A stretch of 64,000 bases of DNA from Escherichia phage HermannAdler_Bas98. Position 1 is the stretch's first letter. The number at the start of each line of letters is the position of its first letter. The translations under genes and the position numbers were made by a program. Where the stretch lies: the sequence record PQ850608.1. One strand, given 5' to 3'. This document shows, one piece after another, positions 2,197 through 59,857 of this stretch. Under the pieces are notes generated by a model, which was not told where the DNA came from, searched no databases, and saw only the letters and a program-made list of their open reading frames with translations.

Positions 2197-2480
2197 TTTA
2201 TACGTATAATGACGTATCATCCGTATCAAGTAAGTTATTGTTTTCAAAAGAATCTTACGGATGATACGGATGATACGCGTTGCCGCCGTACTATATAGGA
2301 ATTCAAATAAATTAATTTAAAATTATATATCTAATTTAATTTTATTTTTTTATAAACTCTTATATATGAAAAGTATCCGTATCATCCGTATCATCCGTAG
2401 CACACCAGTGATAGCGCGGCTTATACACCGATACGGATAAAAATACGCCTCATTTTATCCGTATCATCCGTATCACACTA
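2197..2480. repeat. iteron/AT-rich element, copy 1
   Basis: The 9-bp unit ATCATCCGT (reverse ACGGATGAT) occurs in tandem at 2212-2228, 2255-2279, 2373-2400 and 2455-2476, with a degenerate copy at 2431-2447. These flank an A/T core at 2296-2370. The element is homologous in order and orientation to 54530-54782. Confidence 0.8.
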
Positions 2481-2532: not shown

Positions 2533-2561
2533 TTGCCTAAGTTTTTTTCATTAGATATAAT
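2533..2561 (+). promoter_or_regulatory. sigma70-type promoter for the scaffold/capsid operon
   Basis: TTGCCT, 17-bp spacer, TATAAT, about 24 nt upstream of the 2585 start. Confidence 0.6.
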
Positions 2562-2584: not shown

Positions 2585-4006
2585 ATGCGAATGCAAACGG
2601 CACGCGAAATTGACAAAAATGGATTCTTGACGATTATGGGTTGTCCAATTTCGTCATTTGGCATTTTTGATTATTCTGCTGGTCAAGTCGGTCTTGATGG
2701 TGATCCGAATCGCATCGTAAAAGTCTATCGCCCTGAGTCAGCGGTGAAAGACCCCGAAGCGATAGATTCATTCAAAAATATCCCTTTCATCGACAATCAC
2801 GAAATGCTTTCTGGATTTGAAGGTGATGAGGATAACACAGCACCCGAAGAGTATGGAGTTGATGGCGTTCTGACTGGCAATGTTTATTATGACAAGCCAT
2901 GGATGCGCGGCGACCTTAAAGTGTTTAGCCGTCGTCTGAAGAAGGCCATTGATTCTGGAAAGGTTGACTTGTCTTTGGGCTATGACTGTGAATTCATCAT
3001 ACAGTCTGGAGAGTTTGACGGGCAGCCGTATGAAGTGGTGCAGACAACTCTTCGCGGCAACCACATTGCTCTCGTGGACGTTGGTCGAGTACCAGGTGCA
3101 CGGGTGCTGGATGGTCGTTGCTTTGACCATCTTTGTTTGACGACTGTAACACCATCCAACGAGGATTTAGACATGCCAAAACCGTTAAAAGGTAAAGCGC
3201 GTGATAATGCTGTTGAACAGCTGAAATCACTGATCCCTGCGCTCGAACAATTTCTGAACGAAGAGAGTACTGAAGCTGCTCATCAGGACGAAGTTGAAGT
3301 GAAAGCAGAAGAGAAGGACTCAACCGAAAATCGTGAAGAAGTAATGGTTGATCCAGAAGTCAAGGCAGAAGCAGAAGAAACCCCAGAAGGTGAAGAGAAG
3401 TTTGAAGTTGAAACTGAATCTCACGCTGGCGGCGAACTTCCGCAATTGATCAGCCAAATCGAAGCACTTATTGCAAAACTGAAAGGTGGCGCGGTAGGTG
3501 ATGAAGAAGAAGTTGAAGCCGAAGTCAAAGACGAAGAAGAAGTTGAAGTCAAGGCTGAAGATGTATCACCTTGCGACAAAGCTGAAGATGTGGTTAGCGG
3601 CCTGCAAAACAGCAACGTAAAGGGGGCTTCGGTCGAAAAAGATGACAAACCGACAAAAGCGGCGAAAGCGTCGCCAGGTCCAGCAAAAGGGGAACACTCA
3701 ATGGCATCTGATTCAGCAGTTGCTGCTTTCTACGCTGATTCTGCTCGTAAGAATAGCCTCTACCAGCGCCTGTCTAAAGTTGTTGGTGCCTTTGATCATG
3801 CAACTATGGACTCCAAGTCCGTAGCGAAATATGGCGCTAAAAAGTTAGGCTTGAAGTGCGTTGATGGTGCTGAGTTTGACGTGGTGGATAATTATCTGCG
3901 CGGCGTTGAGCACGGTCAAAAACAGCGTGTAGTCGCAAAACAAAAGGCCGCTGCGGATTCTGCAGCAACTGACGAAGCATTTGAAGCTTGGTTGAAAGGG
4001 GAATAA
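2585..4006 (+). CDS. prohead scaffold / maturation protease-like protein
   Basis: 473 aa. The N-terminal half (LRGNHIALVDVGRVPGARV) resembles the DUF2213 phage prohead protein family. The C-terminal half is strongly acidic with EVKAE-type repeats. It lies just before the capsid gene. Confidence 0.55.
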   Translation: MRMQTAREIDKNGFLTIMGCPISSFGIFDYSAGQVGLDGDPNRIVKVYRPESAVKDPEAIDSFKNIPFIDNHEMLSGFEGDEDNTAPEEYGVDGVLTGNVYYDKPWMRGDLKVFSRRLKKAIDSGKVDLSLGYDCEFIIQSGEFDGQPYEVVQTTLRGNHIALVDVGRVPGARVLDGRCFDHLCLTTVTPSNEDLDMPKPLKGKARDNAVEQLKSLIPALEQFLNEESTEAAHQDEVEVKAEEKDSTENREEVMVDPEVKAEAEETPEGEEKFEVETESHAGGELPQLISQIEALIAKLKGGAVGDEEEVEAEVKDEEEVEVKAEDVSPCDKAEDVVSGLQNSNVKGASVEKDDKPTKAAKASPGPAKGEHSMASDSAVAAFYADSARKNSLYQRLSKVVGAFDHATMDSKSVAKYGAKKLGLKCVDGAEFDVVDNYLRGVEHGQKQRVVAKQKAAADSAATDEAFEAWLKGE

Positions 4007-18953: not shown

Positions 18954-21692
18954 ATGCAAAAGTTTGACACAAACCTGTTGCAAAACCTTAAGTGGATGCA
19001 GAACAATGCACCAAACATTACATCTTTGGTGCAAAAGAAAAGTGACTGGTATGAAAGATACCAAGATCAGTTTTGGACTGACTGGTACAATAACATTTTT
19101 AACATTGACACTTGTGATGCAATGGGCATTTATATTTGGTGCGACATTCTTTGCATACCAAGAGACTTTGTGGACTTAAGCAATTATGAGCACAACTGGG
19201 CGTTTGGACCGACGCGCGACAACTTTGAAGGTGCGGACAACATCGGCGGCAACTTCTTTGGTGCTGGCGGGAAGGTTGTAAAGAATATCGAAGAAGCGCG
19301 CATACTTCTTAAGCTTCGTTATCTGACGCTTACAAGTGATGGTCGCATCGAAAGTATCAACCGCATGCTTAAGTGGATTTTCAACCGTGGAGAGGCTTGG
19401 GATTACTCTTCATCACGCTACGCATACGTGACCGACAACACTCAAGGTGCGGTGTCTTCATCTGAATCAACAAATGGATCATTCCTTCTATACGACTGGC
19501 AGGGGTCGACTGAGATTCAGCACGATTATAAGCAGATACTTTTAAGCCATGGCAACAACGCCGGACTGACTATCAGCGGAGTGTCAGGCACCGTGTCACG
19601 GATGGCGCACCCAGATTGGTACTCATGGGGGAATGGTTCCGGCACAGGTCTTGTCGGCGGCGACACCAGACAGTATGGTGGGCCTGATTACTATGGGCAG
19701 TTGTGTGGTGATTACCCAGGCGAGGCCATAGAGAATTTTGCCAACGCAGTAAGGGTCATCAAGACGGCTTCAAGCGGTGATCCTGTGTATTCTTTGGCCA
19801 ATAATCCAAGTGCCAAATCAATTTCGCTTCCTTCGCAGGCTGGCGTCAACGTTTGCTATAGCTTCTACATAAAGGTGCTTTCTGAAAATGTCGCTTCTGT
19901 TTCTGTTACAGAGAATAGTGATGCATCGAGTAATGGAAAGCTGTTTGACCCCGTCACTGGCCAGTTCAACTTGGACCCGTCATTGAGTTATTTCATCAAA
20001 GGCAAATTCGATGGAGTAAGAAGGGAATCAAACCGTGGTGGCATAAAAGCAATTGGCGGCGATTGGTATCGAATCTGGATTGTAGAGCAGACGGCAACCG
20101 CTGCTTCTGGAGTAAGTACCAGCTTTTCAATAGAGTTGAAGGCGACTGCCGCTGGATCAACTCAAACTCGTGAATTGCCTGAAGGGTCTGATGCTCTTTT
20201 GTTTGGATACTCGATTTGCGTCTGCGACCCTGTTCAGAATCCAAATGGACCTGAGCCTTATTTTTATGGAACGCAAAACCCTCCTTCTGACGGAACAGCA
20301 ATCCTGTCTGTAACGGCGGGAACACTCAATAACATCTCCTGTGCAAACGGACCGCTGACGACAAGAAACGGTGTGGTTGGCGAGTCATTCATGCAACCTG
20401 GCTCATCACTTGCATACTCTGGCTCAATCGGTGGCTACCCGTACCCAGGGAACGCCACGCTGATTGCAGAGACTGATGGAATCAGACGCTCATGGAACGT
20501 TAGCAGGCTGGATGGAGTACCGCCGCCGCCGACCGCCGACTATTACATGGAATACGTCATCGGACCTTATTTCGCCAACAACCTGTCTGACAACTTTAAG
20601 ACGCTAGTTGGCGACAGGAATGAAGGATTCTTGCCAGCAAATGCCGGAATACGTTGGCAGCTTTACCAAGAAGTCGCAGACTTATCTGATATTGATTTGA
20701 CCGTCAGCAACATAACAGACACGCGAGTAGGATTCGAAACGGAAGGTGTCGCATGGATTAACACTGACGGCATCATCAGAGTTGGCGGCATTAACGAGTG
20801 GCCGCTGAACAACTTCAACGGTGTGATACGCCAGCTTGAATCTTTGAAAGGTGTAAACCAGGTCGTCGACGGCGCACTTGTCAACGACTATTCAATCTCA
20901 AAAGCATCAAGAGATGACTTTGGTCGTGAAATACCACGCGCGCCAATCACTAACTATTGGCGCTACACACAGCCAAATGACGGTACATCTTTTGGCAATA
21001 TCATTGAGGATGGCGCAAACACTGTCACAGCGACGCCAATCAGCGGTGCGCCCAACCAGTTCCCATCATTCAAGCTTTCCGCTACAATAGGGACTGTGCC
21101 AGCATCCGGTTATGCACGCGCTGTGCTTGCTACTAAATACACTGGCACCCTGACTGGCCCTTTGTCATTTATCGCAATAGTCAAAAACAACACGGTTAAC
21201 GGTCAAAAACTTTTTGTAACTGTACCGGATGGGATGGGTGGCTATATCCCTAAATTCTACAACATAGGCGCAGGTGATTTGCAACGTATCGAAATTGACC
21301 TTGCCGCTGAGATTGTTGAAGGCGCTACCTGGGATGGATCAACAGGCGGCATCAGCATCGGTTTGATATCAGGGAAAGACTTGCCGACCGAAGTTGGTAC
21401 GACTCTTGAACTTGATATTTTAAGCTTGATGCTTGTGTCTGGTAGTACGATGAATGCGCTTGCAATTTCAACAAGCGAAGATTTTGCAAAGAAAACTGCG
21501 ACTTCTATATACATCAAAAACCCAGGATCACTTGCCACTGGAGTTCAATTGATTGCTTCTAATGGTGATGTTGTAGCAACAGTAAACTTTCCGAGAAGTG
21601 CTGCTGGTGGTTATGTTTCAAGCATGAACATAACTGACTTAACTGGTGATTGGGCATCAACCCTTTTATCAAAAATTAAATACATCGTGTAG
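18954..21692 (+). CDS. baseplate-attached tail fibre/wedge protein (DUF2612-like N-terminus)
   Basis: 912 aa. N-terminus NLKWMQNNAPNITSLVQKKSDWYERYQDQFWTDWYNNIFNIDT resembles DUF2612 tail proteins. It has a long C-terminal extension. Confidence 0.5.
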   Translation: MQKFDTNLLQNLKWMQNNAPNITSLVQKKSDWYERYQDQFWTDWYNNIFNIDTCDAMGIYIWCDILCIPRDFVDLSNYEHNWAFGPTRDNFEGADNIGGNFFGAGGKVVKNIEEARILLKLRYLTLTSDGRIESINRMLKWIFNRGEAWDYSSSRYAYVTDNTQGAVSSSESTNGSFLLYDWQGSTEIQHDYKQILLSHGNNAGLTISGVSGTVSRMAHPDWYSWGNGSGTGLVGGDTRQYGGPDYYGQLCGDYPGEAIENFANAVRVIKTASSGDPVYSLANNPSAKSISLPSQAGVNVCYSFYIKVLSENVASVSVTENSDASSNGKLFDPVTGQFNLDPSLSYFIKGKFDGVRRESNRGGIKAIGGDWYRIWIVEQTATAASGVSTSFSIELKATAAGSTQTRELPEGSDALLFGYSICVCDPVQNPNGPEPYFYGTQNPPSDGTAILSVTAGTLNNISCANGPLTTRNGVVGESFMQPGSSLAYSGSIGGYPYPGNATLIAETDGIRRSWNVSRLDGVPPPPTADYYMEYVIGPYFANNLSDNFKTLVGDRNEGFLPANAGIRWQLYQEVADLSDIDLTVSNITDTRVGFETEGVAWINTDGIIRVGGINEWPLNNFNGVIRQLESLKGVNQVVDGALVNDYSISKASRDDFGREIPRAPITNYWRYTQPNDGTSFGNIIEDGANTVTATPISGAPNQFPSFKLSATIGTVPASGYARAVLATKYTGTLTGPLSFIAIVKNNTVNGQKLFVTVPDGMGGYIPKFYNIGAGDLQRIEIDLAAEIVEGATWDGSTGGISIGLISGKDLPTEVGTTLELDILSLMLVSGSTMNALAISTSEDFAKKTATSIYIKNPGSLATGVQLIASNGDVVATVNFPRSAAGGYVSSMNITDLTGDWASTLLSKIKYIV

Positions 21693-39535: not shown

Positions 39536-40381
39536 TTATTCCGCTTGATCACCGTCTTCGGCATCGTCGTTGGATTCAACATCGACAAACTCGATGTGGC
39601 CCATCTCTTCCAGCTTGCTCAGGTAGGAGCGAACGGAAGCGCCAAACAGCTGATCTTTAACTTTCTCGCCCAGCTCATCGATAGACTGCGCCACGCCAAC
39701 TTCGCCTTCTTTGATCGCCGCCAGAACGCGCCCACGGGTGGAGTGCTCCTGCGGCTGGCTCAGGCCGTTGCCAGTGTAGATGAAGTGAGTAGCTTTTGCA
39801 CGGCGCTGACCGTTTGCCTTTTTGGCAGCCTTGCGCTCTGCGATGGCTTTGCGACGTTCTTCAGCTTCTTTCTTACGCTGTTCTTTTTGCTGTTCTGCAG
39901 CTTCTTTCGCCGCGATCTTAGCAGCTTCACGCTCTGCCTTGCGTTTCGCTTTCGCTTCTTCTTTAGCCTTCTCTTTTTCGGCCTTTGCTGCAGCACGGGC
40001 TTGATCACGCTCTGCTTTCTTAGCAGCAGCTTGTTCAGCTTTCAGGCGCTTGGCTTCTTCTTTGGCCTTTGCCTTTTCGATTTCTTTTGCTGCTTTAGCG
40101 GCTTCACGCTCTGCTTTCTTAGCAGCAGCCTTTTCTGCACGCTCTTTAGCTTTCTTAGCTGCTTCTTCAGCACGCTTCTGAGCCTTCTCATCAGCAGCCT
40201 GTTTGCGCTTCAGCGCGGCTTCTTCACGCTTGGCTTGTTTTTCCTGCTCACGCTTCTGGCGTTTTTCTTCGGCTTCTTTCTTTTTAGCCAGGCGTTTTTC
40301 TTCAGCCACGCGACGACGTTCTGCTGCGGCTGCTTGTTTTTCTTCTTTAGATAATACTTTGATTGCTTCGGCCATATTCAC
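39536..40381 (-). CDS. K/A/E/R-rich charged-helix protein with globular C-terminal domain and acidic tail
   Basis: About 190 aa of near-continuous KAAEK/EEAKR low-complexity sequence, then about 80 aa of ordinary sequence ending DDAEDGDQAE. Own promoter and terminator. Confidence 0.6.
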   Translation of the reverse strand: MNMAEAIKVLSKEEKQAAAAERRRVAEEKRLAKKKEAEEKRQKREQEKQAKREEAALKRKQAADEKAQKRAEEAAKKAKERAEKAAAKKAEREAAKAAKEIEKAKAKEEAKRLKAEQAAAKKAERDQARAAAKAEKEKAKEEAKAKRKAEREAAKIAAKEAAEQQKEQRKKEAEERRKAIAERKAAKKANGQRRAKATHFIYTGNGLSQPQEHSTRGRVLAAIKEGEVGVAQSIDELGEKVKDQLFGASVRSYLSKLEEMGHIEFVDVESNDDAEDGDQAE

Positions 40382-41719: not shown

Positions 41720-42045
41720 TATAACTCCACTACGCTGTCAAGGTCCAGATATACTGGAATAAAATGGCAATCTTCTTTTCGTTCAAACATCTCACCATCA
41801 ACATGGCTGAAGAAAACAGTTGTGTTTGGTATCTTCCATCCTTTCTCGTCGCGCACTAAGTACGCCATGGATTCAACAGGGATGTACAGCGATACCGGAT
41901 TTGCGGCAAAAATAAATTTGATTCTGTCTGGTTGACCCAGAAATCGCATGATTGTTAGGCTTGAATTCAATCTTGTATTAAGGAAGGACTCAACGATTCC
42001 GACGTGTGTTGCACGTTCGCGTTGCTTCGTCTCTTTTTCGTTCAT
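41719..42045 (-). CDS. hypothetical protein
   Basis: 108 aa. First gene of the leftward operon from promoter 42084-42112. 1-nt overlap with the helicase start. Confidence 0.5.
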   Translation of the reverse strand: MNEKETKQRERATHVGIVESFLNTRLNSSLTIMRFLGQPDRIKFIFAANPVSLYIPVESMAYLVRDEKGWKIPNTTVFFSHVDGEMFERKEDCHFIPVYLDLDSVVEL

Positions 42046-42083
42046 TTCAGGCGACCTTTGTTAGTGCGGAAATATTTTCTGAT

Positions 42084-42112
42084 AGTATAATTGCAGATAT
42101 AGTATAAAGCAA
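42084..42112 (-). promoter_or_regulatory. leftward promoter of a divergent pair
   Basis: Minus strand: TTGCTT, 17-bp spacer, TATACT. Confidence 0.55.
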
Positions 42113-42148
42113 AGTAAATCGAAATTGTGAACTAAATGGTAAATATTG

Positions 42149-42176
42149 TTGACTTTGTATCACTCAATATTATACT
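42149..42176 (+). promoter_or_regulatory. rightward promoter of a divergent pair
   Basis: TTGACT, 16-bp spacer, TATACT, about 30 nt before the primase start. Confidence 0.6.
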
Positions 42177-42205
42177 GCAGGTATTGATCACCGAAGGAAA
42201 GAAAG

Positions 42206-43288
42206 ATGGCTAGTTTAAGAGAAGAAGCAAAAATAATCGAAGAGTTTTTGACGGAACTCCAAAGAGGCATTCCAGAAGACGAACGCGTCATGACCGTGTT
42301 TGCGCCTGAAGCGACAGTGCAGACTGACGAGCGCGGCAAGAAGATCAACAGCAGCTTCTGGCCTAAGCCTTGGAAGTTGGGCAAGTCGCTCATGCAGCAC
42401 CAAAACGGCTATGCGTGCATCAGTTCAATGCGTAAGTCTCCCAACCCAAAGACGGGTGAGATGCGATACTGGCGTACAGAGTCGGCCTTTGGTCACGGCA
42501 TGGCGATGATGGTCGACGACATCGGTCACGGTAAAGGGTCCAAAGGCGATTTAGATTTGGAATTCTTTTTTGAGCGACTGAAGCCGACTGTCATCGTCGA
42601 GACTTCACCGAACAACCACCAGCTTTGGTACTTCTTTAAAGAACCGATTGACCATCTTATTCAGTTCAAAGCGTTCCTTGGGTCTTTCGTTAACATGGTA
42701 CTCAAGAAGGGCGGCGACAACACGATTAAAGACGTAACGCGCGTGGGCCGTGTTCCTGGGTGCATCAACAACAAGCGTGTGACTCACGACGGCCCCTATA
42801 AATATGTCGATGAGAACGGCGACCCGTTCCGCTGCCGACTTGTCCATGCAGACTACTCATTGCGCTACACCATCGAAGACATTTGTCAGGCATTTGGCTT
42901 TCACGTCGTCATGCCGCAAAAGCGTGAGATTCAAATTGACGTCGATGAATACAAGTATGATGCTGTTTGGTATAAAATAGCCCAGCAGATTCTATCGCGC
43001 AACAAAATGGGTGAAGGGTCTGATGGCGACGTCATCGAGAACATGTCAGGCAAGTGCCGCATAATCTGTCCTTGGGGTGAAGAACACACCAACGGCGACC
43101 CGTATGGCGCTTACTTTCGCGGCCCTATTCCTGGTGCAGAACATGAGTTTGTGTTCGGTTGCGCCCACGACTGTCACCGGAAAGGGGAAGGCAAGAAAGG
43201 TTGGACTGCTTTTGTTGAAGCAATCGTCATGCCTTATATTGAGAATCAACTTGACATGATAAATCGTCGTGCAGGTGGCATAAAATAG
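42206..43288 (+). CDS. RepB'-like / archaeo-eukaryotic-type primase with C-terminal Cys/His cluster
   Basis: MMVDDIGHG and IVETSPNNHQLWYFF resemble the catalytic DxD and ETSPGN motifs of RSF1010 RepB'-type primases. C-terminus has CPWGEEH ... CAHDCH. Confidence 0.5.
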   Translation: MASLREEAKIIEEFLTELQRGIPEDERVMTVFAPEATVQTDERGKKINSSFWPKPWKLGKSLMQHQNGYACISSMRKSPNPKTGEMRYWRTESAFGHGMAMMVDDIGHGKGSKGDLDLEFFFERLKPTVIVETSPNNHQLWYFFKEPIDHLIQFKAFLGSFVNMVLKKGGDNTIKDVTRVGRVPGCINNKRVTHDGPYKYVDENGDPFRCRLVHADYSLRYTIEDICQAFGFHVVMPQKREIQIDVDEYKYDAVWYKIAQQILSRNKMGEGSDGDVIENMSGKCRIICPWGEEHTNGDPYGAYFRGPIPGAEHEFVFGCAHDCHRKGEGKKGWTAFVEAIVMPYIENQLDMINRRAGGIK

Positions 43289-44597: not shown

Positions 44598-46268
44598 ATG
44601 TCAATTAATAATGACAATCTTCCAGAGGATACAGGTGATGAATTTGGTGCAATCTTTGACGAAATTCAAGATGCAGGCGTTTCGGAAGAAATGCAGGCAG
44701 CAGAGCAGCAAGGCACCAGAGCTAAAATCAGCCTTCAACACAAAGCCGTTGAAAAAGATTCAGAGCGCATGGAATGCTACGGTGAAGAAGACTTGGTTGA
44801 AAGAGCACGCTTGCTCGCCTCACTTCAGGTAATCAAGTTCCCTCACTACAAGCCTACCAAAGATGACTTCGTTCTACAGGCAGACCGGACGAGTGACATG
44901 AACCGTTATGCGGTTTTCGACGCGTTGTTTGATAAGGGAAGTGGCGTTGTTCCATTCCCTCACAAAGATACTTTTCGTGGGCGCTTAGTCGACCATCGCG
45001 GCGAAACTTTCACCGACCGGACGTTGGAAGTCACAGAGATAGTTGCCGCTGTCGACGCAGCAGGTCTGTCCAACCCAAACTCACGTCAGGTAGCTCAATC
45101 CTATAAGGAATGGGCTATGCGTTATCAGCGTGACGACCTGATGGACTTCTTCTACAAGAAGCTGCCTGAATGGGACGGTACTGCGCGCATTGAGAAATAC
45201 CTTATCGAGCTATTCCGACCGTTCGATACAGAGTTAAACCGACAAATCGGTGTGTATTTTTGGCTATCGCTCTACAACCGACTGACCAACCCTGGCTGTC
45301 AAGCGCCAATCTCCATCGCGCTCATCGGCGGCCAGAACGCAGGGAAGAGTTATTTTAGCAAGCTACTTTGCGAAGCTATTATGAACGACCGCCACGCAAC
45401 ACCGATTCCGTTGAACTTAGCCGCGCAGAACTTCAACCCGTTCTTGCGAGCTATTACGGGTCGCTCAATTATCGCGAACGTCGGCGAGATGACAGGCTTT
45501 AAAAAGGCCGACATCGAAAACATGAAAGCATTCCTGACTAAGACGGAAGATGACCTGGACTTCAAATTTGAAGATACTCAGGTTAAACCACGCCAGTGGA
45601 TTGCTATCATGGACGGCAACGAATACGCAGGCATGCAGCGTGATGACACGGGCAACCGTCGTGTGTATCCTATCTTTGTTGGCCAACTCGCTGACAAGGA
45701 CGGGCAACCGAACTGGTCGAAAGATTTCCAAGCTGACCTTTCCACTTTGAAAGAAGACGTTTGGCAGTTGATGGCTGAGTGCGCTGCATGGATGGAGAAG
45801 CACGGCGAAGCAGGCTATAACGCGTTTGTTGGTGAAACATCTCGCATGCTTACTGAGTTCAGTAAAAACGAAATGGAACGTGCACGCGGCGTTATTCGTG
45901 ATGAGATGGTTGACAACGACCTTGTTGAAGTCGTCATCACCGCGCCTTATGACCGACATCACAGCGGACGCTGGCACATCACCAGTGGTGCTATTGCTAT
46001 GGGATTCAGAGCGAAGTGCGGCAAGTCGCCTTTCTCTCGTACCCTTGCGCCGCACATGTCGAAGCTTGGTTTTGAGCCTGCGACCTATCGCAACCAGCGC
46101 GGTTACTTTACGCCGCTGATTAAGAATGAAGCAGGGGAATACATTTCCGACTTGATGACCATCTTAGCGTATCTTATCCGTGATGAGTCTGACCCTGAAG
46201 ATATTGAATTCTTGAAGAAGGTTATCGAGCGTAAACGTTCTTTGGGAAGAGATAAGGATGAATTCTGA
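44598..46268 (+). CDS. VirE-like P-loop NTPase (primase-associated helicase candidate)
   Basis: AGGAGG SD. Walker A GGQNAGKSYF and DDTGNRRVYPIFV resemble the virulence-associated protein E / D5-type family. Confidence 0.65.
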   Translation: MSINNDNLPEDTGDEFGAIFDEIQDAGVSEEMQAAEQQGTRAKISLQHKAVEKDSERMECYGEEDLVERARLLASLQVIKFPHYKPTKDDFVLQADRTSDMNRYAVFDALFDKGSGVVPFPHKDTFRGRLVDHRGETFTDRTLEVTEIVAAVDAAGLSNPNSRQVAQSYKEWAMRYQRDDLMDFFYKKLPEWDGTARIEKYLIELFRPFDTELNRQIGVYFWLSLYNRLTNPGCQAPISIALIGGQNAGKSYFSKLLCEAIMNDRHATPIPLNLAAQNFNPFLRAITGRSIIANVGEMTGFKKADIENMKAFLTKTEDDLDFKFEDTQVKPRQWIAIMDGNEYAGMQRDDTGNRRVYPIFVGQLADKDGQPNWSKDFQADLSTLKEDVWQLMAECAAWMEKHGEAGYNAFVGETSRMLTEFSKNEMERARGVIRDEMVDNDLVEVVITAPYDRHHSGRWHITSGAIAMGFRAKCGKSPFSRTLAPHMSKLGFEPATYRNQRGYFTPLIKNEAGEYISDLMTILAYLIRDESDPEDIEFLKKVIERKRSLGRDKDEF

Positions 46269-53999: not shown

Positions 54000-54015
54000 T
54001 TATGATTAATGTTAA

Positions 54016-54040
54016 GAGGGCCGATTGGCCCTTTTTATTT
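54016..54040 (+). terminator. intrinsic terminator ending the small-gene array
   Basis: GGGCC-gatt-GGCCC followed by TTTTTATTT. Confidence 0.7.
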
Positions 54041-54151
54041 GCCTGTGTAATGGGAGGCTTTTGTGGTTATTTACGATTCAAGGCTGTAATTTAAGAGAGC
54101 GAAAATATTATAATAATTTATCAAGATTATTGCATATTGTGGCAATCAACG

Positions 54152-54782
54152 TTTATACGTATTTATGACAGTTTAATCCACTAAATAATACGGATAGAAC
54201 AGTGAGGAAAATACAGCGGTGTATTTTAGTGTAAATATTGAATCAAAAATAAATAATTATGGTGCTATTATATACGCAGATTGTTTGTAATTTATAGGAT
54301 ATTTTATCGTGGAGTATTGGCTAACGGTGCGTTAGCCGTGGGTCTTGGTGCTTGTGGTGTTGATGCTCAGAATTTTAATAATGTTTTTAGTTTTAGTAAT
54401 CGTAGTCAATGATGATACGTATAAGAAAATGAGAGTCACCCCTTCACAGGATATTGTACCGTGGCCCTGTGGTGCGCCGCGCCTGGGATTGCTGGTATAC
54501 ACTGGTGCTATTTTGCCGCGAAGGCAGTCATTCATACGTATCATGACGTATCATTGGGCTATTGATTTATAAGGAAAAATACGCTGATACGGATGATACG
54601 GGTGCAAACATAATATATATAGAATTCCAGAAAATTAATTAACTCCATTTTGAATTAATTTAAATTAATTTTTTTCTACATCCTCATACTTATACTAAAC
54701 TTATATTCATACGTATCATCCGTAAGATATAAGTAAAAACAAGGACTTGCGGCAATACGGATGATACGTCATGATACGCTTC
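54152..54782. repeat. iteron/AT-rich element, copy 2, with outlying half-sites
   Basis: ATACGTATCATGACGTATCAT at 54533-54554, GATACGGATGATACGG at 54586-54602, an A/T core at 54605-54677, CATACGTATCATCCGT at 54708-54724, ATACGGATGATACGTCATGATACG at 54755-54778. Outliers are TTTATACGTATTTATGAC at 54152-54169 and AATACGGATA at 54187-54196. Confidence 0.8.
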
Positions 54783-54943
54783 GACCAGCCAGCAGCGGCT
54801 AAGTCATTGATTTGCATAGCAAGCGGCGAAAGGGATGGATTTCTTTTATACGTATCAAACAGTACACCACGCACCACGGTCCGCAATCCTATTTGCAATA
54901 TGATTTGTGTACGTTTATAGCCATAATGAACATCAATCTGCAC

Positions 54944-54972
54944 TTGAATATAATGTCCATCCATTGTATAAT
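54944..54972 (+). promoter_or_regulatory. sigma70-type promoter upstream of the TerS-like gene
   Basis: TTGAAT, 17-bp spacer, TATAAT. The predicted start site lies just before the first ATTTGCACTAT pair. Confidence 0.5.
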
Positions 54973-54992
54973 TCACACTATTAATTTGCACT

Positions 54993-55481
54993 ATGGGATT
55001 TTGCACTATGAGTCAAGATTATGTAGCGATGCCTGAAGACTTTGAAGACCCGCGATTCGCAGAGCACAATCAGGCTTTATTCGATGAGTTCATTGACCTT
55101 GTTATTCAGGGTCATGACATGCGCGCAGCTTTTGCACTAGTATTTGGAATGGAAGTTGCAACGGATAACTACACTGGCCAGCGAATCCTTTGCACGCAAC
55201 GCAATCCATACTACAAGATGCGCTTCAAAAAGCGTATGGAAGAGATGCCACTCAAGGATTTGTGGAGCGTAAAAGGTGCAATTCACAATTTGGTCAAGCT
55301 TGTGCGTGATCCAGAAGTCGCGGCGTCAGCCAAGCTTAATGCTATTCGTGAACTGAATATCATCTACGGCATCACGATGATTGATGAAAACGGCAATAGT
55401 AAAATGGGCCGTTCTATGGACGATTTCTACAAGGATTTTGGAGAGGCTGCCAAAGAAGGAGAGCAATTCTCCCGCCACTAG
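54993..55481 (+). CDS. small-terminase-like protein (tentative)
   Basis: HDMRAAFALVFGM ... QRNPYYKMRFKKRMEE ... DLWSVKGAIHNLVKLVRD ... AKLNAIRELNIIYGI has the HTH plus oligomerisation-helix pattern of TerS proteins. The start may instead be ATG 55008. No adjacent large terminase. Confidence 0.4.
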   Translation: MGFCTMSQDYVAMPEDFEDPRFAEHNQALFDEFIDLVIQGHDMRAAFALVFGMEVATDNYTGQRILCTQRNPYYKMRFKKRMEEMPLKDLWSVKGAIHNLVKLVRDPEVAASAKLNAIRELNIIYGITMIDENGNSKMGRSMDDFYKDFGEAAKEGEQFSRH

Positions 55482-55500
55482 CCAATTTGCACTATAAAAC

Positions 55501-55534
55501 GGCCCTAGAACACATGTTCTCCACTTCTAGGGCC
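55501..55534. terminator. 10-bp-stem hairpin (minus-strand terminator, possibly bidirectional)
   Basis: GGCCCTAGAA, 14-nt loop, TTCTAGGGCC. On the minus strand it is followed by GUUUUAUAG. Confidence 0.5.
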
Positions 55535-55595
55535 ATCGGTAATACGACGGGGAAGGTCGCACCCATAAACGCGTTAGAAAGTGTATTATTATAAG

Positions 55596-55859
55596 TCATC
55601 TTTTAGTCGCTTTACGTAACAATTTACGACCTTCAACCGTCCAATCGAACGACTCCACCAGCAGATTCGCACTATAACCTAAGACGATGCGCCCTTTCTC
55701 GTTATCGACCCGCCAACAAGTCTCGAATAGCATTCGATTTGCACTATTAACTATTGCCGCAACGCGCGTAGGGTAAGCGCAATTTGCACTATGGTCGTAA
55801 AGGGATAAGGTGCGACCACTTCCGATGGACAATGTAGCGATGAGAATAAGCGTATTCAT
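55596..55859 (-). CDS. hypothetical protein with hydrophobic N-terminus
   Basis: 87 aa starting MNTLILIATLSIGSG. Carries three copies of the ATTTGCACTAT motif on the opposite strand, each read as SAN. Confidence 0.4.
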   Translation of the reverse strand: MNTLILIATLSIGSGRTLSLYDHSANCAYPTRVAAIVNSANRMLFETCWRVDNEKGRIVLGYSANLLVESFDWTVEGRKLLRKATKR

Positions 55860-55880
55860 AAGCCACCAATTTGCACTATG

Positions 55881-55902
55881 AAAAGCGACCCCGAAGGGCC
55901 GC
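55881..55902 (-). terminator. intrinsic terminator after 55910-56536
   Basis: Minus strand: GCGGCCC-UUCG-GGGUCGC (one G-U pair) followed by UUUUCAU. Confidence 0.6.
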
Positions 55903-55909
55903 CATTCGA

Positions 55910-56536
55910 TTAGATAATCTGGAAGGTGTAGGACTTGTTGCCGAACTCGAAGTTCAAGCGTCCAGCTTCTTTAAGCTTCATGCGGAAGCGAATGTGCTTG
56001 CTATCCGGTAATCCCAGCGCGGCGAAGGCTACGCGGACCGATTTGAACTCGCCTACACCCTCGACCATAACGCCGTTACGGGTGAGACGCTTTTGCGCCA
56101 CTTCCTTATTATCCCAACTTTTTGCAATACCTTCGCTATTCGAACGGCGATGGGAAGGAGTTCCATTTTGCACTACGCAATTTGCACTATCGTTTAAGCC
56201 GCTCTTAACGAAGGCTTCATACTCTTCATCGCTCATCGCGTCGAGTTCTTCCTGGGTCGGCTCAGCCTTTTTAACGACCGCACGCGCCTTATGCGTTTTT
56301 ACATCACTGGACACTTCCTCACGCGGCTTCGCGTCGGGAATGGGCGATTCGTTGGACGGCTCATCGAGCGCGTTTAAGGACTCGATTAACGCGATTACGC
56401 GAGTCTCGGCGGTCCGGCGGTCCGCAAATTTCTTAATCGGCTTCGAACCGGAATTTGCATTATAAAATGCAACGAGGTCGGCGGTCTTAGTTGCGATAAC
56501 GTCGCCGCTAGTAGAAAAGCGATTTAAGCTAACCAT
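55910..56536 (-). CDS. hypothetical protein
   Basis: 208 aa. RBS context TAGGAGTTTATTATGG is shared with 56617-56931. CpG-rich codon usage. Confidence 0.5.
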   Translation of the reverse strand: MVSLNRFSTSGDVIATKTADLVAFYNANSGSKPIKKFADRRTAETRVIALIESLNALDEPSNESPIPDAKPREEVSSDVKTHKARAVVKKAEPTQEELDAMSDEEYEAFVKSGLNDSANCVVQNGTPSHRRSNSEGIAKSWDNKEVAQKRLTRNGVMVEGVGEFKSVRVAFAALGLPDSKHIRFRMKLKEAGRLNFEFGNKSYTFQII

Positions 56537-56616
56537 AATAAACTCCTATTTGTTAGGGCGCTAGGCGCGAAAGAATTTTATTAAAGCGCCGCGCACGACG
56601 CTCTAAAAATCCTCTC

Positions 56617-56931
56617 TTACTCTTCGTCGTCTTCGATTAATTCGAGGGCGAAGGCGTAAGCTTTGCTATCGTAATTAACTAAAACGGCGAGTTCGAACTC
56701 GTTAATAAACGCCGTTTTACCGCATAAATTTAATTCCGCATCGACTTCGAAGAATCCGTTTTCGTCGCGCTCTAAGCGAGAAGCAGCGAGTTGCTCGATT
56801 ACCGTCGCGTCGTTAATTTCTTCGCCTAAGCGAACGCCGGAGAATTTCGCGAGAATTTCGCCGTAAGTAAGCGTAACGCCCTGGACTTCGGCGGCGGCGT
56901 TTTCGAGGGTAAAGCGGGTAACGATAGCCAT
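56617..56931 (-). CDS. small acidic protein (104 aa)
   Basis: Ends LIEDDEE. Driven by the minus-strand copy of the promoter-leader cassette. SD is AGGAG. Confidence 0.55.
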   Translation of the reverse strand: MAIVTRFTLENAAAEVQGVTLTYGEILAKFSGVRLGEEINDATVIEQLAASRLERDENGFFEVDAELNLCGKTAFINEFELAVLVNYDSKAYAFALELIEDDEE

Positions 56932-56955
56932 AATAAACTCCTAGTTGGGAGAGGC

Positions 56956-57038
56956 GTTAACGACCTATTCGTTAACTCATCCCGTCCCGATATGAGTACA
57001 TTATAATATAGTGTAGAAAAAAGTAAAGCACTTTTTCG
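56956..57038 (-). promoter_or_regulatory. promoter-leader cassette P3 (minus strand)
   Basis: Minus strand: AAAAAGTGCTTTACT, 16-bp spacer, TATAAT, then CATATCGGGACGGGATGAG, then hairpin GTTAACG-AATAGGT-CGTTAAC (56976-56956), then AACTAGGAG SD. Confidence 0.65.
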
Positions 57039-57071
57039 ATAAAAATGCGATAAATTATTTTATCTTTTTTC

Positions 57072-57117
57072 TTTACTTCTTCGTACACTCGCGTATACTT
57101 GTTTATATCGAGACGGG
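57072..57117 (+). promoter_or_regulatory. promoter-leader cassette P1
   Basis: TTTACT (57072-57077), 16-bp spacer, TATACT (57094-57099), then TATATCGAGACGGG (57104-57117). Confidence 0.65.
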
Positions 57118-57155
57118 CGATGGCCCTTTCTTCTACTAGCATCGGGAGCTTTATT

Positions 57156-57458
57156 ATGACTACTTTAATCTCTTCCATCCTTACTTACGACGAAGACCGC
57201 TTAACCGTTCGCTCTCTTATCGCCGCCGTTAACGCGGAACTAGAATCTAGCGCCATTAAGGTCCGCGCGGTCGCCTTCATCGGCCTTTCCTTCGACGATA
57301 TGAAGTATGCCGAACGTAGCGCCATCCGCTTCGCGAAGACCGACGACGAAGCCGTTACCCTTATCGAGACGGTTACGCCGCGCGGCGAAGCGTTAATTAT
57401 CGTCGAGTATATCGACGTAGAAGGCGATAAATCTTATAAACATTTTATCGCAGAATAA
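57156..57458 (+). CDS. small acidic protein (100 aa)
   Basis: GGGAG SD before ATG 57156. Downstream of cassette copy P1. The track start 57099 lies inside the promoter. Confidence 0.55.
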   Translation: MTTLISSILTYDEDRLTVRSLIAAVNAELESSAIKVRAVAFIGLSFDDMKYAERSAIRFAKTDDEAVTLIETVTPRGEALIIVEYIDVEGDKSYKHFIAE

Positions 57459-57459
57459 C

Positions 57460-57542
57460 GAAAAAAGTGCTTTACTTCTTCGTACACTAAGACTATAATG
57501 TTTTATATCGAGAGGGGATGAGGTAGCGAATAGGTCACTACC
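57460..57542 (+). promoter_or_regulatory. promoter-leader cassette P2
   Basis: AAAAAAGTGCTTTACT, 17-bp spacer, TATAAT (57494-57499), then TATATCGAGAGGGGATGAG, then hairpin GGTAGCG-AATAGGT-CACTACC (57522-57542), then AACTAGGAG SD. Confidence 0.65.
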
Positions 57543-57566
57543 CTCCCGACTAACTAGGAGAATATT

Positions 57567-57857
57567 ATGATTACTTTAGCCGCTATCCGTTCCGCTCGCG
57601 TCGAAACTTCCGAAAACTCTAACGTATTTGGCGAAAAACTTAAAAACGTTTATCTCTTTAACGTAGATGCGACTATCGAGGAGCTTCACAGTCCTATCGA
57701 TTTTAGCGAATTTACGGAACTCGAAGAGGAAGATATTTCTACCTTCCGCGTTACTATCGAAGGCAAGGTTTATTTTGCTACGGAGTTCGGCGGCGAATAT
57801 CTCGCGGTATCCGAAGGCGAAGGCCGTTACTCTTTCTTTAAAATCGTTTCCTTATAA
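57567..57857 (+). CDS. small acidic protein (96 aa)
   Basis: TAGGAG SD. Downstream of cassette copy P2. Followed by terminator 57877-57902. Confidence 0.55.
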   Translation: MITLAAIRSARVETSENSNVFGEKLKNVYLFNVDATIEELHSPIDFSEFTELEEEDISTFRVTIEGKVYFATEFGGEYLAVSEGEGRYSFFKIVSL

Positions 57858-57876
57858 TACCCTTCCGTTACTAATA

Positions 57877-57902
57877 GGCCGCGCTTAGTCGCGGCTTTTC
57901 TT
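57877..57902 (+). terminator. intrinsic terminator
   Basis: GCCGCG-cttagt-CGCGGC followed by TTTTCTT. Confidence 0.65.
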
Positions 57903-58021
57903 CGTCCCTATCTCGATGCGCTCCTACGCGAAAACTCCTTTATCCTTCCCTTCGTCGTCGCATAATCTTCTTCGAGATGCGTCTTAGTTCGCATAACAGG
58001 TATTACGTTAAATGGAGAACA

Positions 58022-58102
58022 TCGCGTAAGTCCTTGTTTTATATAGACACCTATATCGGACCGTTAGGGCGGGTCGCGTAAGTCGTTGTTTTATAAAGGC
58101 AC
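58022..58102 (+). repeat. 29-bp direct repeat pair
   Basis: TCGCGTAAGTCCTTGTTTTATATAGACAC (58022-58050) against TCGCGTAAGTCGTTGTTTTATAAAGGCAC (58074-58102). Confidence 0.8.
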
Positions 58103-58220
58103 AAAACTTTCCCTTCGTTCCGAACTAAAACGAGAAATATGCCGACCCTTCGCCCGAAAATAGTACGTATGCGAAATTACATTCATCTCGAATAATCCCT
58201 CCCGATATTATCCTACACGC

Positions 58221-58283
58221 AATCATTCGCTTTCGAATCATTATGCTTCATATTATTATGCGTCGAATCATTCGCTTTCGAAT
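58221..58283 (+). repeat. 18-bp direct repeat pair, internally palindromic
   Basis: AATCATTCGCTTTCGAAT at 58221-58238 and 58266-58283. Each contains ATTCG-CTTT-CGAAT. Confidence 0.8.
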
Positions 58284-58498
58284 TGTAACGCTGGAAACTG
58301 TAACGTCGATTGATTATTGCGTTCGTGTGGTTTTTATGGCATGGGTCTTTTGGTGCGTTTTGCTACTTGATGGAATTTGCGGTACACTAATCAAAATACG
58401 ACACATTTGGTCCACTAACTTTTCAAAGAAAAAGTCCTAGACAGTACCGTACTATTTTGTACCCACAGGAAATTTGCAGTACACTCCTGAGCGGCAGG

Positions 58499-59126: not shown

Positions 59127-59352
59127 CAATCGATACCAATTGTGCAGGGTCGCCGGATACAGTTGCGCCGATGATACCCATATGAGAGAAAAATTCTGAA
59201 TAAACTTCTTTCCAGTACTTGCGCGCAGCTTTCTGGGCTTGCCCTTTGCGCTTGTAGCTTTTACCTTGGAAGATGAAGCGGTCGTTTGCTGCGTTATATT
59301 CCACCACACCTTCCAGCCATTGTAAGAAAGCTACTGATTCATTTTGATTCAT
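59116..59352 (-). CDS. hypothetical protein
   Basis: 78 aa. Preferred over the overlapping frame 59031-59309 on amino-acid composition. Confidence 0.45.
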   Translation of the reverse strand: MNQNESVAFLQWLEGVVEYNAANDRFIFQGKSYKRKGQAQKAARKYWKEVYSEFFSHMGIIGATVSGDPAQLVSIDEC

Positions 59353-59359
59353 GTTAACC

Positions 59360-59755
59360 TCAACAATCTAATAAGAAAATTTTTAACCAGCTTTCTGCAA
59401 CCTCGCGGCCCGTAGCCAATCGGTCGGTATTTTCCATTGGTCTGGATTTACCGCATGGCAATCCTTTCTGTAGTTGTGTCCCACTGCCAATTCTTATCCA
59501 AATTTCCCCATCCTTGTCGACGTAGGCTTGGCAACCCATAATATCAAGTCTACTCATTAGGGTGTTAAAAACCTTGAGCCTTTCTTTGGCGATGTTGGCT
59601 GTTCCTCCATTTCTTGGACCACGGCGATTAACAGTCCGCTTCACAACCGGAATATCATTGGTGCGTCGCGGCTTGGGGCGGTAGTAGGCTTCTTCACCAG
59701 GAGTGACACCTGGCGTCAGTTCGCGCTTAAGCGCCTTTTCAATATCAATGATCAT
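59360..59755 (-). CDS. hypothetical basic protein
   Basis: 131-aa ORF. Confidence 0.45.
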   Translation of the reverse strand: MIIDIEKALKRELTPGVTPGEEAYYRPKPRRTNDIPVVKRTVNRRGPRNGGTANIAKERLKVFNTLMSRLDIMGCQAYVDKDGEIWIRIGSGTQLQKGLPCGKSRPMENTDRLATGREVAESWLKIFLLDC

Positions 59756-59758
59756 GAT

Positions 59759-59857
59759 TTATGCCGCAGCAGCGTGGATGATTGCGTAAACTATGCCAAA
59801 CAGGGCAACAACACAAACTGTGCCCCAAAATGCAAAGCGTCGTGCCTCTTTATCCAT
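59759..59857 (-). CDS. small hydrophobic peptide (32 aa)
   Basis: Read by hand: MDKEARRFAFWGTVCVVALFGIVYAIIHAAAA. Fills the gap between flanking genes. Confidence 0.3.
   Translation of the reverse strand: MDKEARRFAFWGTVCVVALFGIVYAIIHAAAA

Follow-up and report, generated by a model that had tools for sequence, protein, structure and literature searches.

A two-copy iteron and AT-core module in a PB1-like Wifcevirus phage: a selected element built like a replication origin, with the probable genome end in one copy

We found that a noncoding element of about 300 bp among the head genes of Escherichia phage HermannAdler_Bas98 (positions 2176-2493; here, copy 1) appears to be a selected cis-acting module, a putative protein-assembly site built like a replication origin. 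Positions are those of the window, the 64,000-nucleotide stretch of sequence record PQ850608.1 that was analyzed. A paralogue of the element, copy 2, lies 52 kb away, beside the small terminase gene, terS. The sequences themselves show how copy 1 is built, that it is under purifying selection, that it is conserved as one of two copies that evolve in concert, where in copy 2 the genome end lies, and that a phage helicase has a known homologue; from these observations we infer the identity of a binding protein and a start of replication at copy 1. The proposition that copy 1 is a second, uncut origin of the SaPI type, bound by the VapE-like SF3 helicase of the phage, is in our judgment evenly balanced.

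The window is 94 to 98% identical to the Wifcevirus Escherichia phages WFC, WFH, ECML-117, vB_Eco4M-7, and Bas99-101. Wifcevirus phages are 68-kb myoviruses that their describers termed PB1-like, and by its sequence the phage studied here is one of them. The preliminary description of this DNA had placed the element in a 415-bp ORF-free gap, and we confirmed the gap at 2170-2584. Its left neighbor is a 45-amino-acid ORF (2032-2169), and its right neighbor is the gene for a head-maturation protease (2585-4006; DUF2213, E = 5e-35). On the physical map (WFC coordinates), copy 1 does not adjoin terS but follows it at a distance of about 16 kb.

Copy 1 opens with a terminator-like hairpin on the plus strand (2176-2200; CGGCAAaggaTTGCCG and then a T run), which forms its left boundary directly after the 45-amino-acid ORF. 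Within the hairpin is TGCCGCGA (2187-2194), which is kept at the left edge of the module in several genera; TGCCGCGA and TTGCGGCA are the module motifs that we singled out beside the iterons. Two iteron blocks follow. The outer-left block (2199-2228, plus strand) consists of a degenerate ACGTATAA, ACGTATCA, and CCGTATCA at a spacing of 9 to 10 bp, with the main repeats at 2212-2228. The inner-left block (2256-2277, minus strand) holds 2.4 copies of TACGGATGA and is followed by GCCGC at 2282-2286. Next comes an AT-rich core of 81 bp (2292-2372) with TATAGGAATTC at 2294-2304, which is the proposed unwinding region. Beyond the core are the inner-right block (2375-2399, plus strand; 2.8 copies of ATCCGTATC), GCGGC at 2416-2420, a degenerate reverse block (2430-2447; GATACGGATAAAAATACG), and a forward block (2453-2476; TTTTATCCGTATCATCCGTATCAC, with core units at 2457-2475). 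The last two blocks pair as a 13-bp inverted repeat, and GCGGC recurs after them at 2489-2493. The order of blocks (forward, reverse, forward, degenerate reverse, forward) is the one in which the 9-bp unit was originally placed, in tandem and in both orientations. The stem formed by the inverted blocks had been put at about 13 bp, but the arms that flank the AT core make a perfect inverted repeat of 22 bp (2256-2277 with 2378-2399); these arms are the inner-left and inner-right blocks. As a single strand, copy 1 folds far better than shuffled sequences (z = -7.7). The core had been called nearly pure A/T, and rightly: it holds the most AT-rich 60-mer of the window (3 G+C of 60, from 2305). The second most AT-rich 60-mer of the 64 kb is in the core of copy 2 (8 G+C of 60).

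To the right of copy 1 is a sigma70-like promoter (2533-2561, plus strand; TTGCCT, a 17-nt spacer, and TATAAT, with 10 of 12 consensus positions). It faces away from copy 1, toward the genes for the protease, scaffold, and capsid, a set that starts at 2585. A search of copy 1 for DnaA boxes and for IHF and Dam sites was negative. A search of Rfam returned no RNA family; the sole match was a chance microRNA (E = 0.66, 22.8 bits against a gathering score of 140), and copy 1 thus does not match a structured RNA gene of a known family.

The 9-mer, which the preliminary description had left to be counted, is strongly clustered. There are 10 exact matches to ATCATCCGT in the 64 kb compared with 0.44 expected, an enrichment of about 20-fold, and this count was reached in none of 100 shuffles. 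Six matches are at 2216-2471, three are at 54589-54765, and one stray is at 1845; 9 of the 10 are thus within two loci, so the unit is not equally frequent elsewhere. Its core, CGTATCA, occurs 23 times in the 64 kb where 6.7 matches are expected, and the two loci account for 17 of these (8 at 2213-2475 and 9 at 54413-54857). We took CCGTATCAT as the iteron repeat sequence that is the candidate protein target.

Copy 1 is better conserved than its neighboring genes. Across seven Wifcevirus genomes, 6.4% of its columns vary compared with 14 to 16% in the flanking coding sequence; the core is 1.2% variable (1 of 82 alignment columns), and the right arm is 1.9% variable. This pattern is that of purifying selection. 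In copy 2, the part to the left of the cut described below is mosaic (83% of columns vary), and the inner reverse block and the cut context are invariant.

Copy 2 (54516-54780) is a collinear paralogue that has TGCCGCGA, a forward block, a reverse block, the AT core, a forward block, and a reverse block, in that order, with outlying units at 54413-54424 and 54846-54857. That the same arrangement recurs 52 kb away had been noticed from the start, and alignment bears it out: the copies are collinear over about 300 bp and identical in 74% of columns, and their local alignment has a z of 29 relative to shuffled sequences. A sensitive blastn search with both loci found no third copy in the window, and the two are the only noncoding iteron clusters in the 64 kb.

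The equivalent of the left genome end falls inside the AT core of copy 2, between 54646 and 54647 (after AATTAACTCC and before ATTTT). The records of WFC, WFH, Ro157lw, and Mansfield, four records from three laboratories, share a first nucleotide that corresponds to window position 54647; the Mansfield ends were called with PhageTerm. By equivalence to these relatives, which sets the position in the window, the core of copy 2 is the packaging start and left genome end. From this nucleotide, a direct terminal repeat region (54647-58350, plus strand; present once in the window) extends rightward for 3.5 to 3.8 kb. Its right boundary, GGGTCTTT/TGGTGCG (here and below, a slash marks the break), was placed by comparison with WFH, Ro157lw, and Mansfield; in WFC, the record runs on for about 81 bp more. 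The cut is 361 nt upstream of terS (55008-55481, plus strand; 157 amino acids), whose product matches PDB entry 7uxe, "Small terminase," with an E value of 7e-34 and is annotated TerS in Mansfield. A sigma70-like promoter for terS is at 54944-54972 (plus strand; TTGAAT, a 17-nt spacer, and TATAAT); it too has 10 of 12 consensus positions, and both promoters are where the preliminary description had put them. That description had also offered packaging-related sites as a fallback. Because copy 2 spans the left genome end, the fallback is right for copy 2, which has the end in its core and terS beside it; copy 1 has neither adjacency to terS nor the cut context. Since the cut context AACTCC/ATTTTG is missing from copy 1, this copy is probably not cut by the terminase. 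As weak negative evidence in the same direction, no public record begins at copy 1, and the long reads of Pseudomonas phage JG024 have one start hot spot only.

The same placement of the end recurs in relatives. The record of the Pantoea phage Kyle (Kylevirus) begins within the AT core of the module upstream of terS. In the Serratia phage MyoSmar, the PhageTerm repeat boundary (between 3559 and 3560) lies between repeat blocks, 387 nt upstream of terS. In a published study of JG024, 36 of 161 long reads begin at 59,376 ± 5, and a matching pac fragment was seen; by our mapping, this start is 600 nt upstream of terS, in the core, with reverse-type repeats on one side and forward-type repeats on the other. 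The PS44 record begins at the same nucleotide as the JG024 read-start site. Wifcevirus, Kylevirus, Myosmarvirus, and Pbunavirus thus all have the virion end or pac start in the copy 2 core, and in all four genera the cut is 360 to 600 nt upstream of terS. Published statements on the termini of Pbunavirus conflict, headful packaging versus defined ends, and none of them mentions the repeats. The Carpasinavirus records carry no terminus information.

Conservation in relatives, which the preliminary description had named as a check, extends to both positions. Five genera have paralogous modules at the same two places, upstream of the head protease gene and upstream of terS. The ORF-free gap upstream of the protease gene is 422 bp in WFC, 516 bp in Kyle, 514 bp in PS44, about 470 bp in MyoSmar, and about 410 bp in BcepF1. 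The repeat unit is CGTATCA in Wifcevirus, GGTTATT together with ATATCCGAA in Kylevirus, GTAATTTGG in Pbunavirus, TACTTTTC in Myosmarvirus, and the 8-mer CTTAGTTA in Bcepfunavirus. Six of the seven occurrences of the unit in the MyoSmar genome, and all 11 matches in the BcepF1 genome, are in the two loci. When copy 1 was compared with copy 2 of the same genome, z was 19 to 48; when it was compared with copy 1 of another genus, z was below 2.5. The units are specific to the genus and the similarity is high within genomes and low between genera, which indicates concerted evolution; the alignments place the whole module in this pattern, spacers and core included.

A polar motif is shared across these modules. 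GCCGC to the left of the core and GCGGC to the right of it account for 58 of 60 occurrences in 11 modules from six genera; the binomial value of 3e-15 overstates the significance because the modules are not independent. Metagenomic contigs linked through the protease gene have a copy-1 module upstream of that gene, and two contigs found through the VapE-like protein have a module in the gap upstream of a gene of terS size. The pattern is absent from more distant 40-kb relatives. In IMG/VR, the exact iteron 16-mer was found at 58 loci, with several matches per locus only in Wifcevirus contigs; the matches elsewhere, one per locus, look like chance. The Xanthomonas phage XcP1 (Carpasinavirus) has a single module and no copy 1, so the second module is dispensable in at least one genus. 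That one module has kept its place by the helicase gene and is 3.1 kb away from terS.

The candidate initiator is a VapE-like protein of 556 amino acids (44598-46268, plus strand; PF05272, E = 2e-28), a predicted self-loading SF3 helicase that may bind the iterons. Upstream of it is the gene for a RepB'-type primase of 360 amino acids (42206-43288, plus strand; PF16793, E = 2e-36), and both domain matches agree with the replication proteins that the preliminary description had proposed. In a sequence search of the PDB, the VapE-like protein matched one entry only, 7pds (E = 4e-11), which is the complex of SaPI1 Rep1 with DNA. An AlphaFold (AF2) model built with 41 homologues has a pLDDT of 86 and a pTM of 0.79, and at its C-terminal end, residues 436 to 504 are modeled with a winged-helix topology (helix-strand-helix-helix-strand-strand). 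The top six Foldseek matches of the model are the six chains of 7pds (E = 1.5e-17, about 480 aligned columns, TM 0.62), followed by the NrS-1, poxvirus D5/E5, and SaPI5 PriRep5 helicases. By sequence and by predicted fold, SaPI1 Rep1 is therefore the closest solved structure to the VapE-like protein. This match is one of helicase homology and is not evidence of common DNA-binding behavior. Variation in the protein is greatest over the 100 residues at the C terminus, with 15 to 32% identity compared with 50 to 80% in the ATPase among the 41 homologues, as would be expected if this domain tracks the genus-specific iterons.

Gene order gives a further hint. Copy 2 comes directly after the helicase gene in Pbunavirus (JG024), Myosmarvirus (MyoSmar), Bcepfunavirus (BcepF1), and Carpasinavirus (XcP1). 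In the window, 8.2 kb separate the helicase gene from copy 2 downstream of it, and copy 1 is between head genes. The arrangement in JG024, MyoSmar, and BcepF1 suggests that the ancestral order was VapE-like helicase, module, terS. Insertions of small genes have since separated the helicase gene from the module in Wifcevirus and Kyle and the module from terS in XcP1. Because insertions are found on either side of copy 2, synteny does not decide between the helicase and the terminase as the partner of the module; the homology to Rep1 is the stronger evidence. Full-length VapE-like homologues occur only in the PB1-like group, so there is no independent lineage for a synteny test.

The type of origin that copy 1 resembles is a known one, in which a self-loading SF3 helicase acts on iterons and an AT core. 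SaPI Rep proteins are helicases of this kind, with a C-terminal winged helix that reads short iterons just downstream of rep (PMC9371898). In the SaPI origin, the iterons surround an AT-rich center in opposite directions with at least two per side, and one hexamer is probably loaded on each side (PMC9371898). Copy 1 is like the SaPI origins for Rep1 and PriRep5 in having iteron clusters that flank an AT-rich center in opposite directions, at least two per side. Further, the SaPI initiator is an SF3 helicase with a C-terminal winged helix, and the VapE-like protein is, by homology and its model, a homologue of Rep1. The SaPI origin is immediately 3' of the helicase gene, as is copy 2 in four related genera, whereas copy 1 is not. 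There are other differences. SaPI iterons are 5 to 6 nt long, whereas the phage units are tandem and 8 to 9 bp long; the phage has two paralogous modules, one of them with the packaging cut; and the replicon is a 68-kb virulent myovirus with a separate RepB' primase, not a satellite.

In the mechanism that we propose, the VapE-like protein would read the iterons through the winged-helix domain at its variable C-terminal end. Each side of the core of about 80 bp has two or three 9-bp iterons in tandem, in opposite directions, with more blocks outside. One hexamer would load on each side of the core, and the core would then melt. The RepB'-type primase and the phage Pol III would go on to bidirectional synthesis. 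The terminator-like hairpin on the left and the outward-facing promoter on the right would insulate copy 1 from transcription. Copy 2, the twin module beside terS, also has the packaging or terminal cut by the terminase in its AT core.

The origin architecture first proposed from iterons and an AT-rich core remains, on the strength of the layout and the Rep1-like helicase, the best-supported mechanism for copy 1. It gained nothing from GC skew: the cumulative skew tracks gene orientation and has no origin signal at 2.3 kb, and we dropped skew as an indicator because it follows the gene strand only. Several other points argue against an origin. First, the only hard functional datum for this module family concerns packaging, namely, the virion end that four genera have in the copy 2 core, and copy 2 is tightly linked to terS. 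Second, the core is kept in sequence and not just in AT content, which a plain unwinding element would not need. Third, copy 1 is remote from the helicase gene, XcP1 lacks it, and the units are tandem and 8 to 9 bp long where SaPI has 5 to 6 nt. A classical iteron-plasmid or lambda-type origin was rejected, as the 9-bp units are in both orientations and on both sides of the core and there is no DnaA-box or IHF consensus. In the replication module, the divergent region at 41720-42205 was rejected as an alternative origin because it has promoters and small ORFs but no repeats, and the repeat-rich stretch at 39.8 to 40.3 kb is low-complexity coiled-coil coding sequence and irrelevant.

Two distant clusters of initiator repeats, one of them outside the replication module, are known from other viral genomes: oriL and oriR of SPP1, ori and crr of P4, and oriL and oriS of HSV. 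In P4, the alpha protein, a primase-helicase of the SF3 type, binds iterons at both sites, and HSV oriS has inverted initiator sites around an AT-rich center. The phage sites differ from these two-site origins in being paralogues as whole modules, in concerted evolution, with one doubling as the genome terminus. T7 has its primary origin at 15% of the genome and secondary origins beside the terminal repeats, made of a promoter and an AT-rich stretch, and an origin-like element at its terminal-repeat junction has been implicated in concatemer processing. The likeness to T7 is in position, with origin-like elements near the terminal-repeat junction and at 15 to 22% of the genome; T7 differs in having promoters for the phage RNA polymerase, not iteron arrays, and other replication proteins.

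The chief alternative, which we think unlikely, is that the iterons are sites for rings of the small terminase, with copy 2 as the true packaging site and copy 1 as an auxiliary pac paralogue that is not cleaved. Copy 1 might then take part in a two-ring synapsis that gauges the maturity of the concatemer, or it might recruit or titrate terminase near the head genes. The terminus data speak for this explanation: in four genera, inverted iteron blocks of copy 2 enclose a core that holds the virion left end or pac start, always at the distance from a genuine terS given above. The phage TerL is of the SPP1/PBSX type, and copy 2 is like SPP1 pacL-pacC-pacR and P1 pac in having the end between repeat blocks, close upstream of terS. 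P1 pac has hexamer repeats on both sides of its cleavage site. SPP1 pac likewise has repeats on both sides of the site (PMC9611059). These pac sites differ from the phage module in that they have no 80-bp AT core and no second distant copy, and copy 1 is not near terS. There is also a precedent for two sites in the "twin ring pac synapsis" of T4, which involves genes 16 and 19 and, as in this phage, two homologous sites a few to tens of kilobases apart with one at terS (PMC9611059). The T4 sites are 24 bp long, lie in coding sequence, and are without iterons or an AT core, and T4 has no unique packaging start. In Kyle, the core of copy 1 closely resembles the cut site (ATAAATTGACTACAAAAAAATA versus ATAAATTC/ACTTAAAAAAAATA). 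However, the small terminase of E217, the protein that TerS of the window matches with an E value of 7e-34, reportedly lacks appreciable DNA binding in vitro (PMC9611059). A near-pure AT core of about 80 bp plays no part in known pac sites, the module of XcP1 keeps to the helicase gene and not to terS, and a special hypothesis is needed to account for copy 1. In Wifcevirus, copy 1 lacks the AACTCC/ATTTTG context, and the starts of the public records and the single hot spot of the JG024 reads, noted above, count weakly against this explanation.

The origin and packaging functions could also coincide. We consider it a doubtful but attractive possibility that packaging in PB1-like phages is embedded in the origin, with the terminase cutting an AT core that the Rep-like helicase has loaded onto or melted, and with no conventional pac sequence. 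If so, this would account for a small terminase of the E217 type that does not bind DNA alone and for the genome end inside the core in four genera. In genera with a terminal repeat of 3.5 to 3.8 kb, origin firing at its left boundary would duplicate the repeat before cutting, and copy 1 would be the same origin minus the cut signal. Of the leads from this analysis, the position of the terminase cut within an origin-like core, seen in four genera, is the most interesting.

Less probable still is a role in transcription, in which the arrays would bind a regulator that times or activates the downstream sigma70-like promoters or would just separate transcription units. Both copies are 100 to 250 bp upstream of outward-facing, near-consensus sigma70 promoters in Wifcevirus, Kyle, PS44, and MyoSmar, and a terminator-like hairpin opens copy 1. 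We noticed no RNA polymerase of their own in these phages, and strong host-type late promoters need timing. However, the arrays and the promoters do not overlap, and the iteron motif is at no other promoter in the genome, so it does not mark late genes in general. The levels of expression required of terS and of the capsid genes are far apart, an 80-bp AT core and a perfect 22-bp inverted repeat would be superfluous for a regulator site, and we found no candidate regulator.

A nonfunctional repeat (left over from a duplication or a recombination event, or a miniature mobile element bounded by terminal inverted repeats) would fit the dyad symmetry with its perfect 22-bp inverted repeat and the hot spot of mosaic variation left of copy 2, but it is the least probable explanation by a wide measure and is effectively refuted by the conservation data: copy 1 is conserved two to three times better than the flanking genes, orthologous modules without detectable sequence similarity hold the same two positions in five genera (a fixity that rejects a mobile element), each genome has two copies and none elsewhere, and the stray IMG/VR matches to the 16-mer outside Wifcevirus are chance-like, one per locus.

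In the literature that we searched, we found no description of the repeats or of the element and no paper that defines a replication origin or packaging site for a PB1-like phage. Duplication at fixed positions, concerted evolution of a whole module, and a cut embedded in one copy are likewise undescribed in that literature.

Few phages are used more in therapy trials and synthetic rebooting than PB1-like myoviruses (Pbunavirus, Wifcevirus, and their relatives). The present analysis locates both copies of a conserved cis element in these phages to the base, ties one copy to the packaging start, and names a candidate initiator. The start of replication, the physical coupling of replication to packaging, and, in view of the lack of DNA binding by the E217 small terminase on its own, the target that the terminase recognizes can now be tested. 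For the engineering and assembly of these genomes, the modules are two noncoding stretches to keep intact. For the phages themselves, the pair may link replication and packaging.

The direct terminal repeat occurs once, complete, in the window at 54647-58350, although its right boundary is possibly 58431. In the related Wifcevirus phages WFH, Ro157lw, and Mansfield, this boundary falls at the identical sequence GGGTCTTT|TGGTGCG, and the lengths of their terminal repeats are unequal (3533-3701 bp). The WFC record ends ~81 bp beyond the same boundary. That the boundary sequence is identical despite the unequal repeat lengths argues, from sequence comparison, that the right end of Wifcevirus genomes is sequence-specific. 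Headful packaging has been reported for Pbunavirus, a relative of Wifcevirus. Tandem Repeats Finder detected a repeat with a 15-nt period and 4.2 copies at 58220-58284 (GAATCATTCGCTTTCGAAT, present twice), lying 70-130 nt inward of the right boundary. These repeats are unrelated to the iterons of the module, the iteron blocks flanking an AT core, and could be a candidate recognition signal for the right end.

Immediately left of the genome end (54646|54647, inside the AT core of copy 2) and outside the terminal repeat, the sequence at 54008-54600 is a mosaic hot spot. In an alignment of seven genomes that are otherwise 94-98% identical, ~83% of columns left of the genome end were variable. The inner-left part of copy 2, upstream of terS, is nearly identical to copy 1, upstream of the head protease gene, in WFH, Mansfield, FEC19, and ECML-117. 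This near-identity suggests that gene conversion has occurred between the two copies.

The gene for a 281-aa protein of unassigned function (phrog_4765; 39536-40381, minus strand) is highly repetitive in DNA and ranked second in the window for repeat richness. Its product is rich in Lys, Glu, and Ala and is probably a coiled coil. A lone exact ATCATCCGT lies on the minus strand at 1845-1853, within the upstream head-fibre-like ORF and ~330 bp left of the module, and is probably a chance occurrence.

Carpasinavirus XcP1 (MH191395) has a single module (within 54412-55349), which directly follows the primase/helicase gene, with terS 3.1 kb away; there is none upstream of its protease gene. The gap housing this module contains a tandem CCCCAGAACAAC array of about four copies near 54985-55020. 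The 68.9-kb record of Pbunavirus PS44 (NC_028939) begins exactly at the JG024 pac position, and tblastn found two terS places in it. We found no genus repeat motif in its right end (62000-68871), and thus the left arm that copy 2 should have is missing there. A Pbunavirus genome of 68.8 kb was put aside in another paper as a possible duplication or misassembly.

Most records of Wifcevirus and Pbunavirus phages label terS as "hypothetical protein." The small-terminase homologue of BcepF1 (NC_009015) was located by tblastn at 20082-20486 on the minus strand (E = 5e-25), where the record annotates only small ORFs on the opposite, plus strand. JG024 gp77 (59205-59786), which extends across the pac/core region, is probably not a real gene.

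Across the modules of six genera, GCCGC is nearly confined to the left side of the AT core and GCGGC to the right side (58/60 occurrences). The motif, often within TGCCGCGA or TYGCGGCA, occurs in the window at 2188, 2282, 2416, 2489, and 54476-54827. This polar motif is kept across genera with differing iterons and could represent candidate primase start sites or the binding sites of a second protein.
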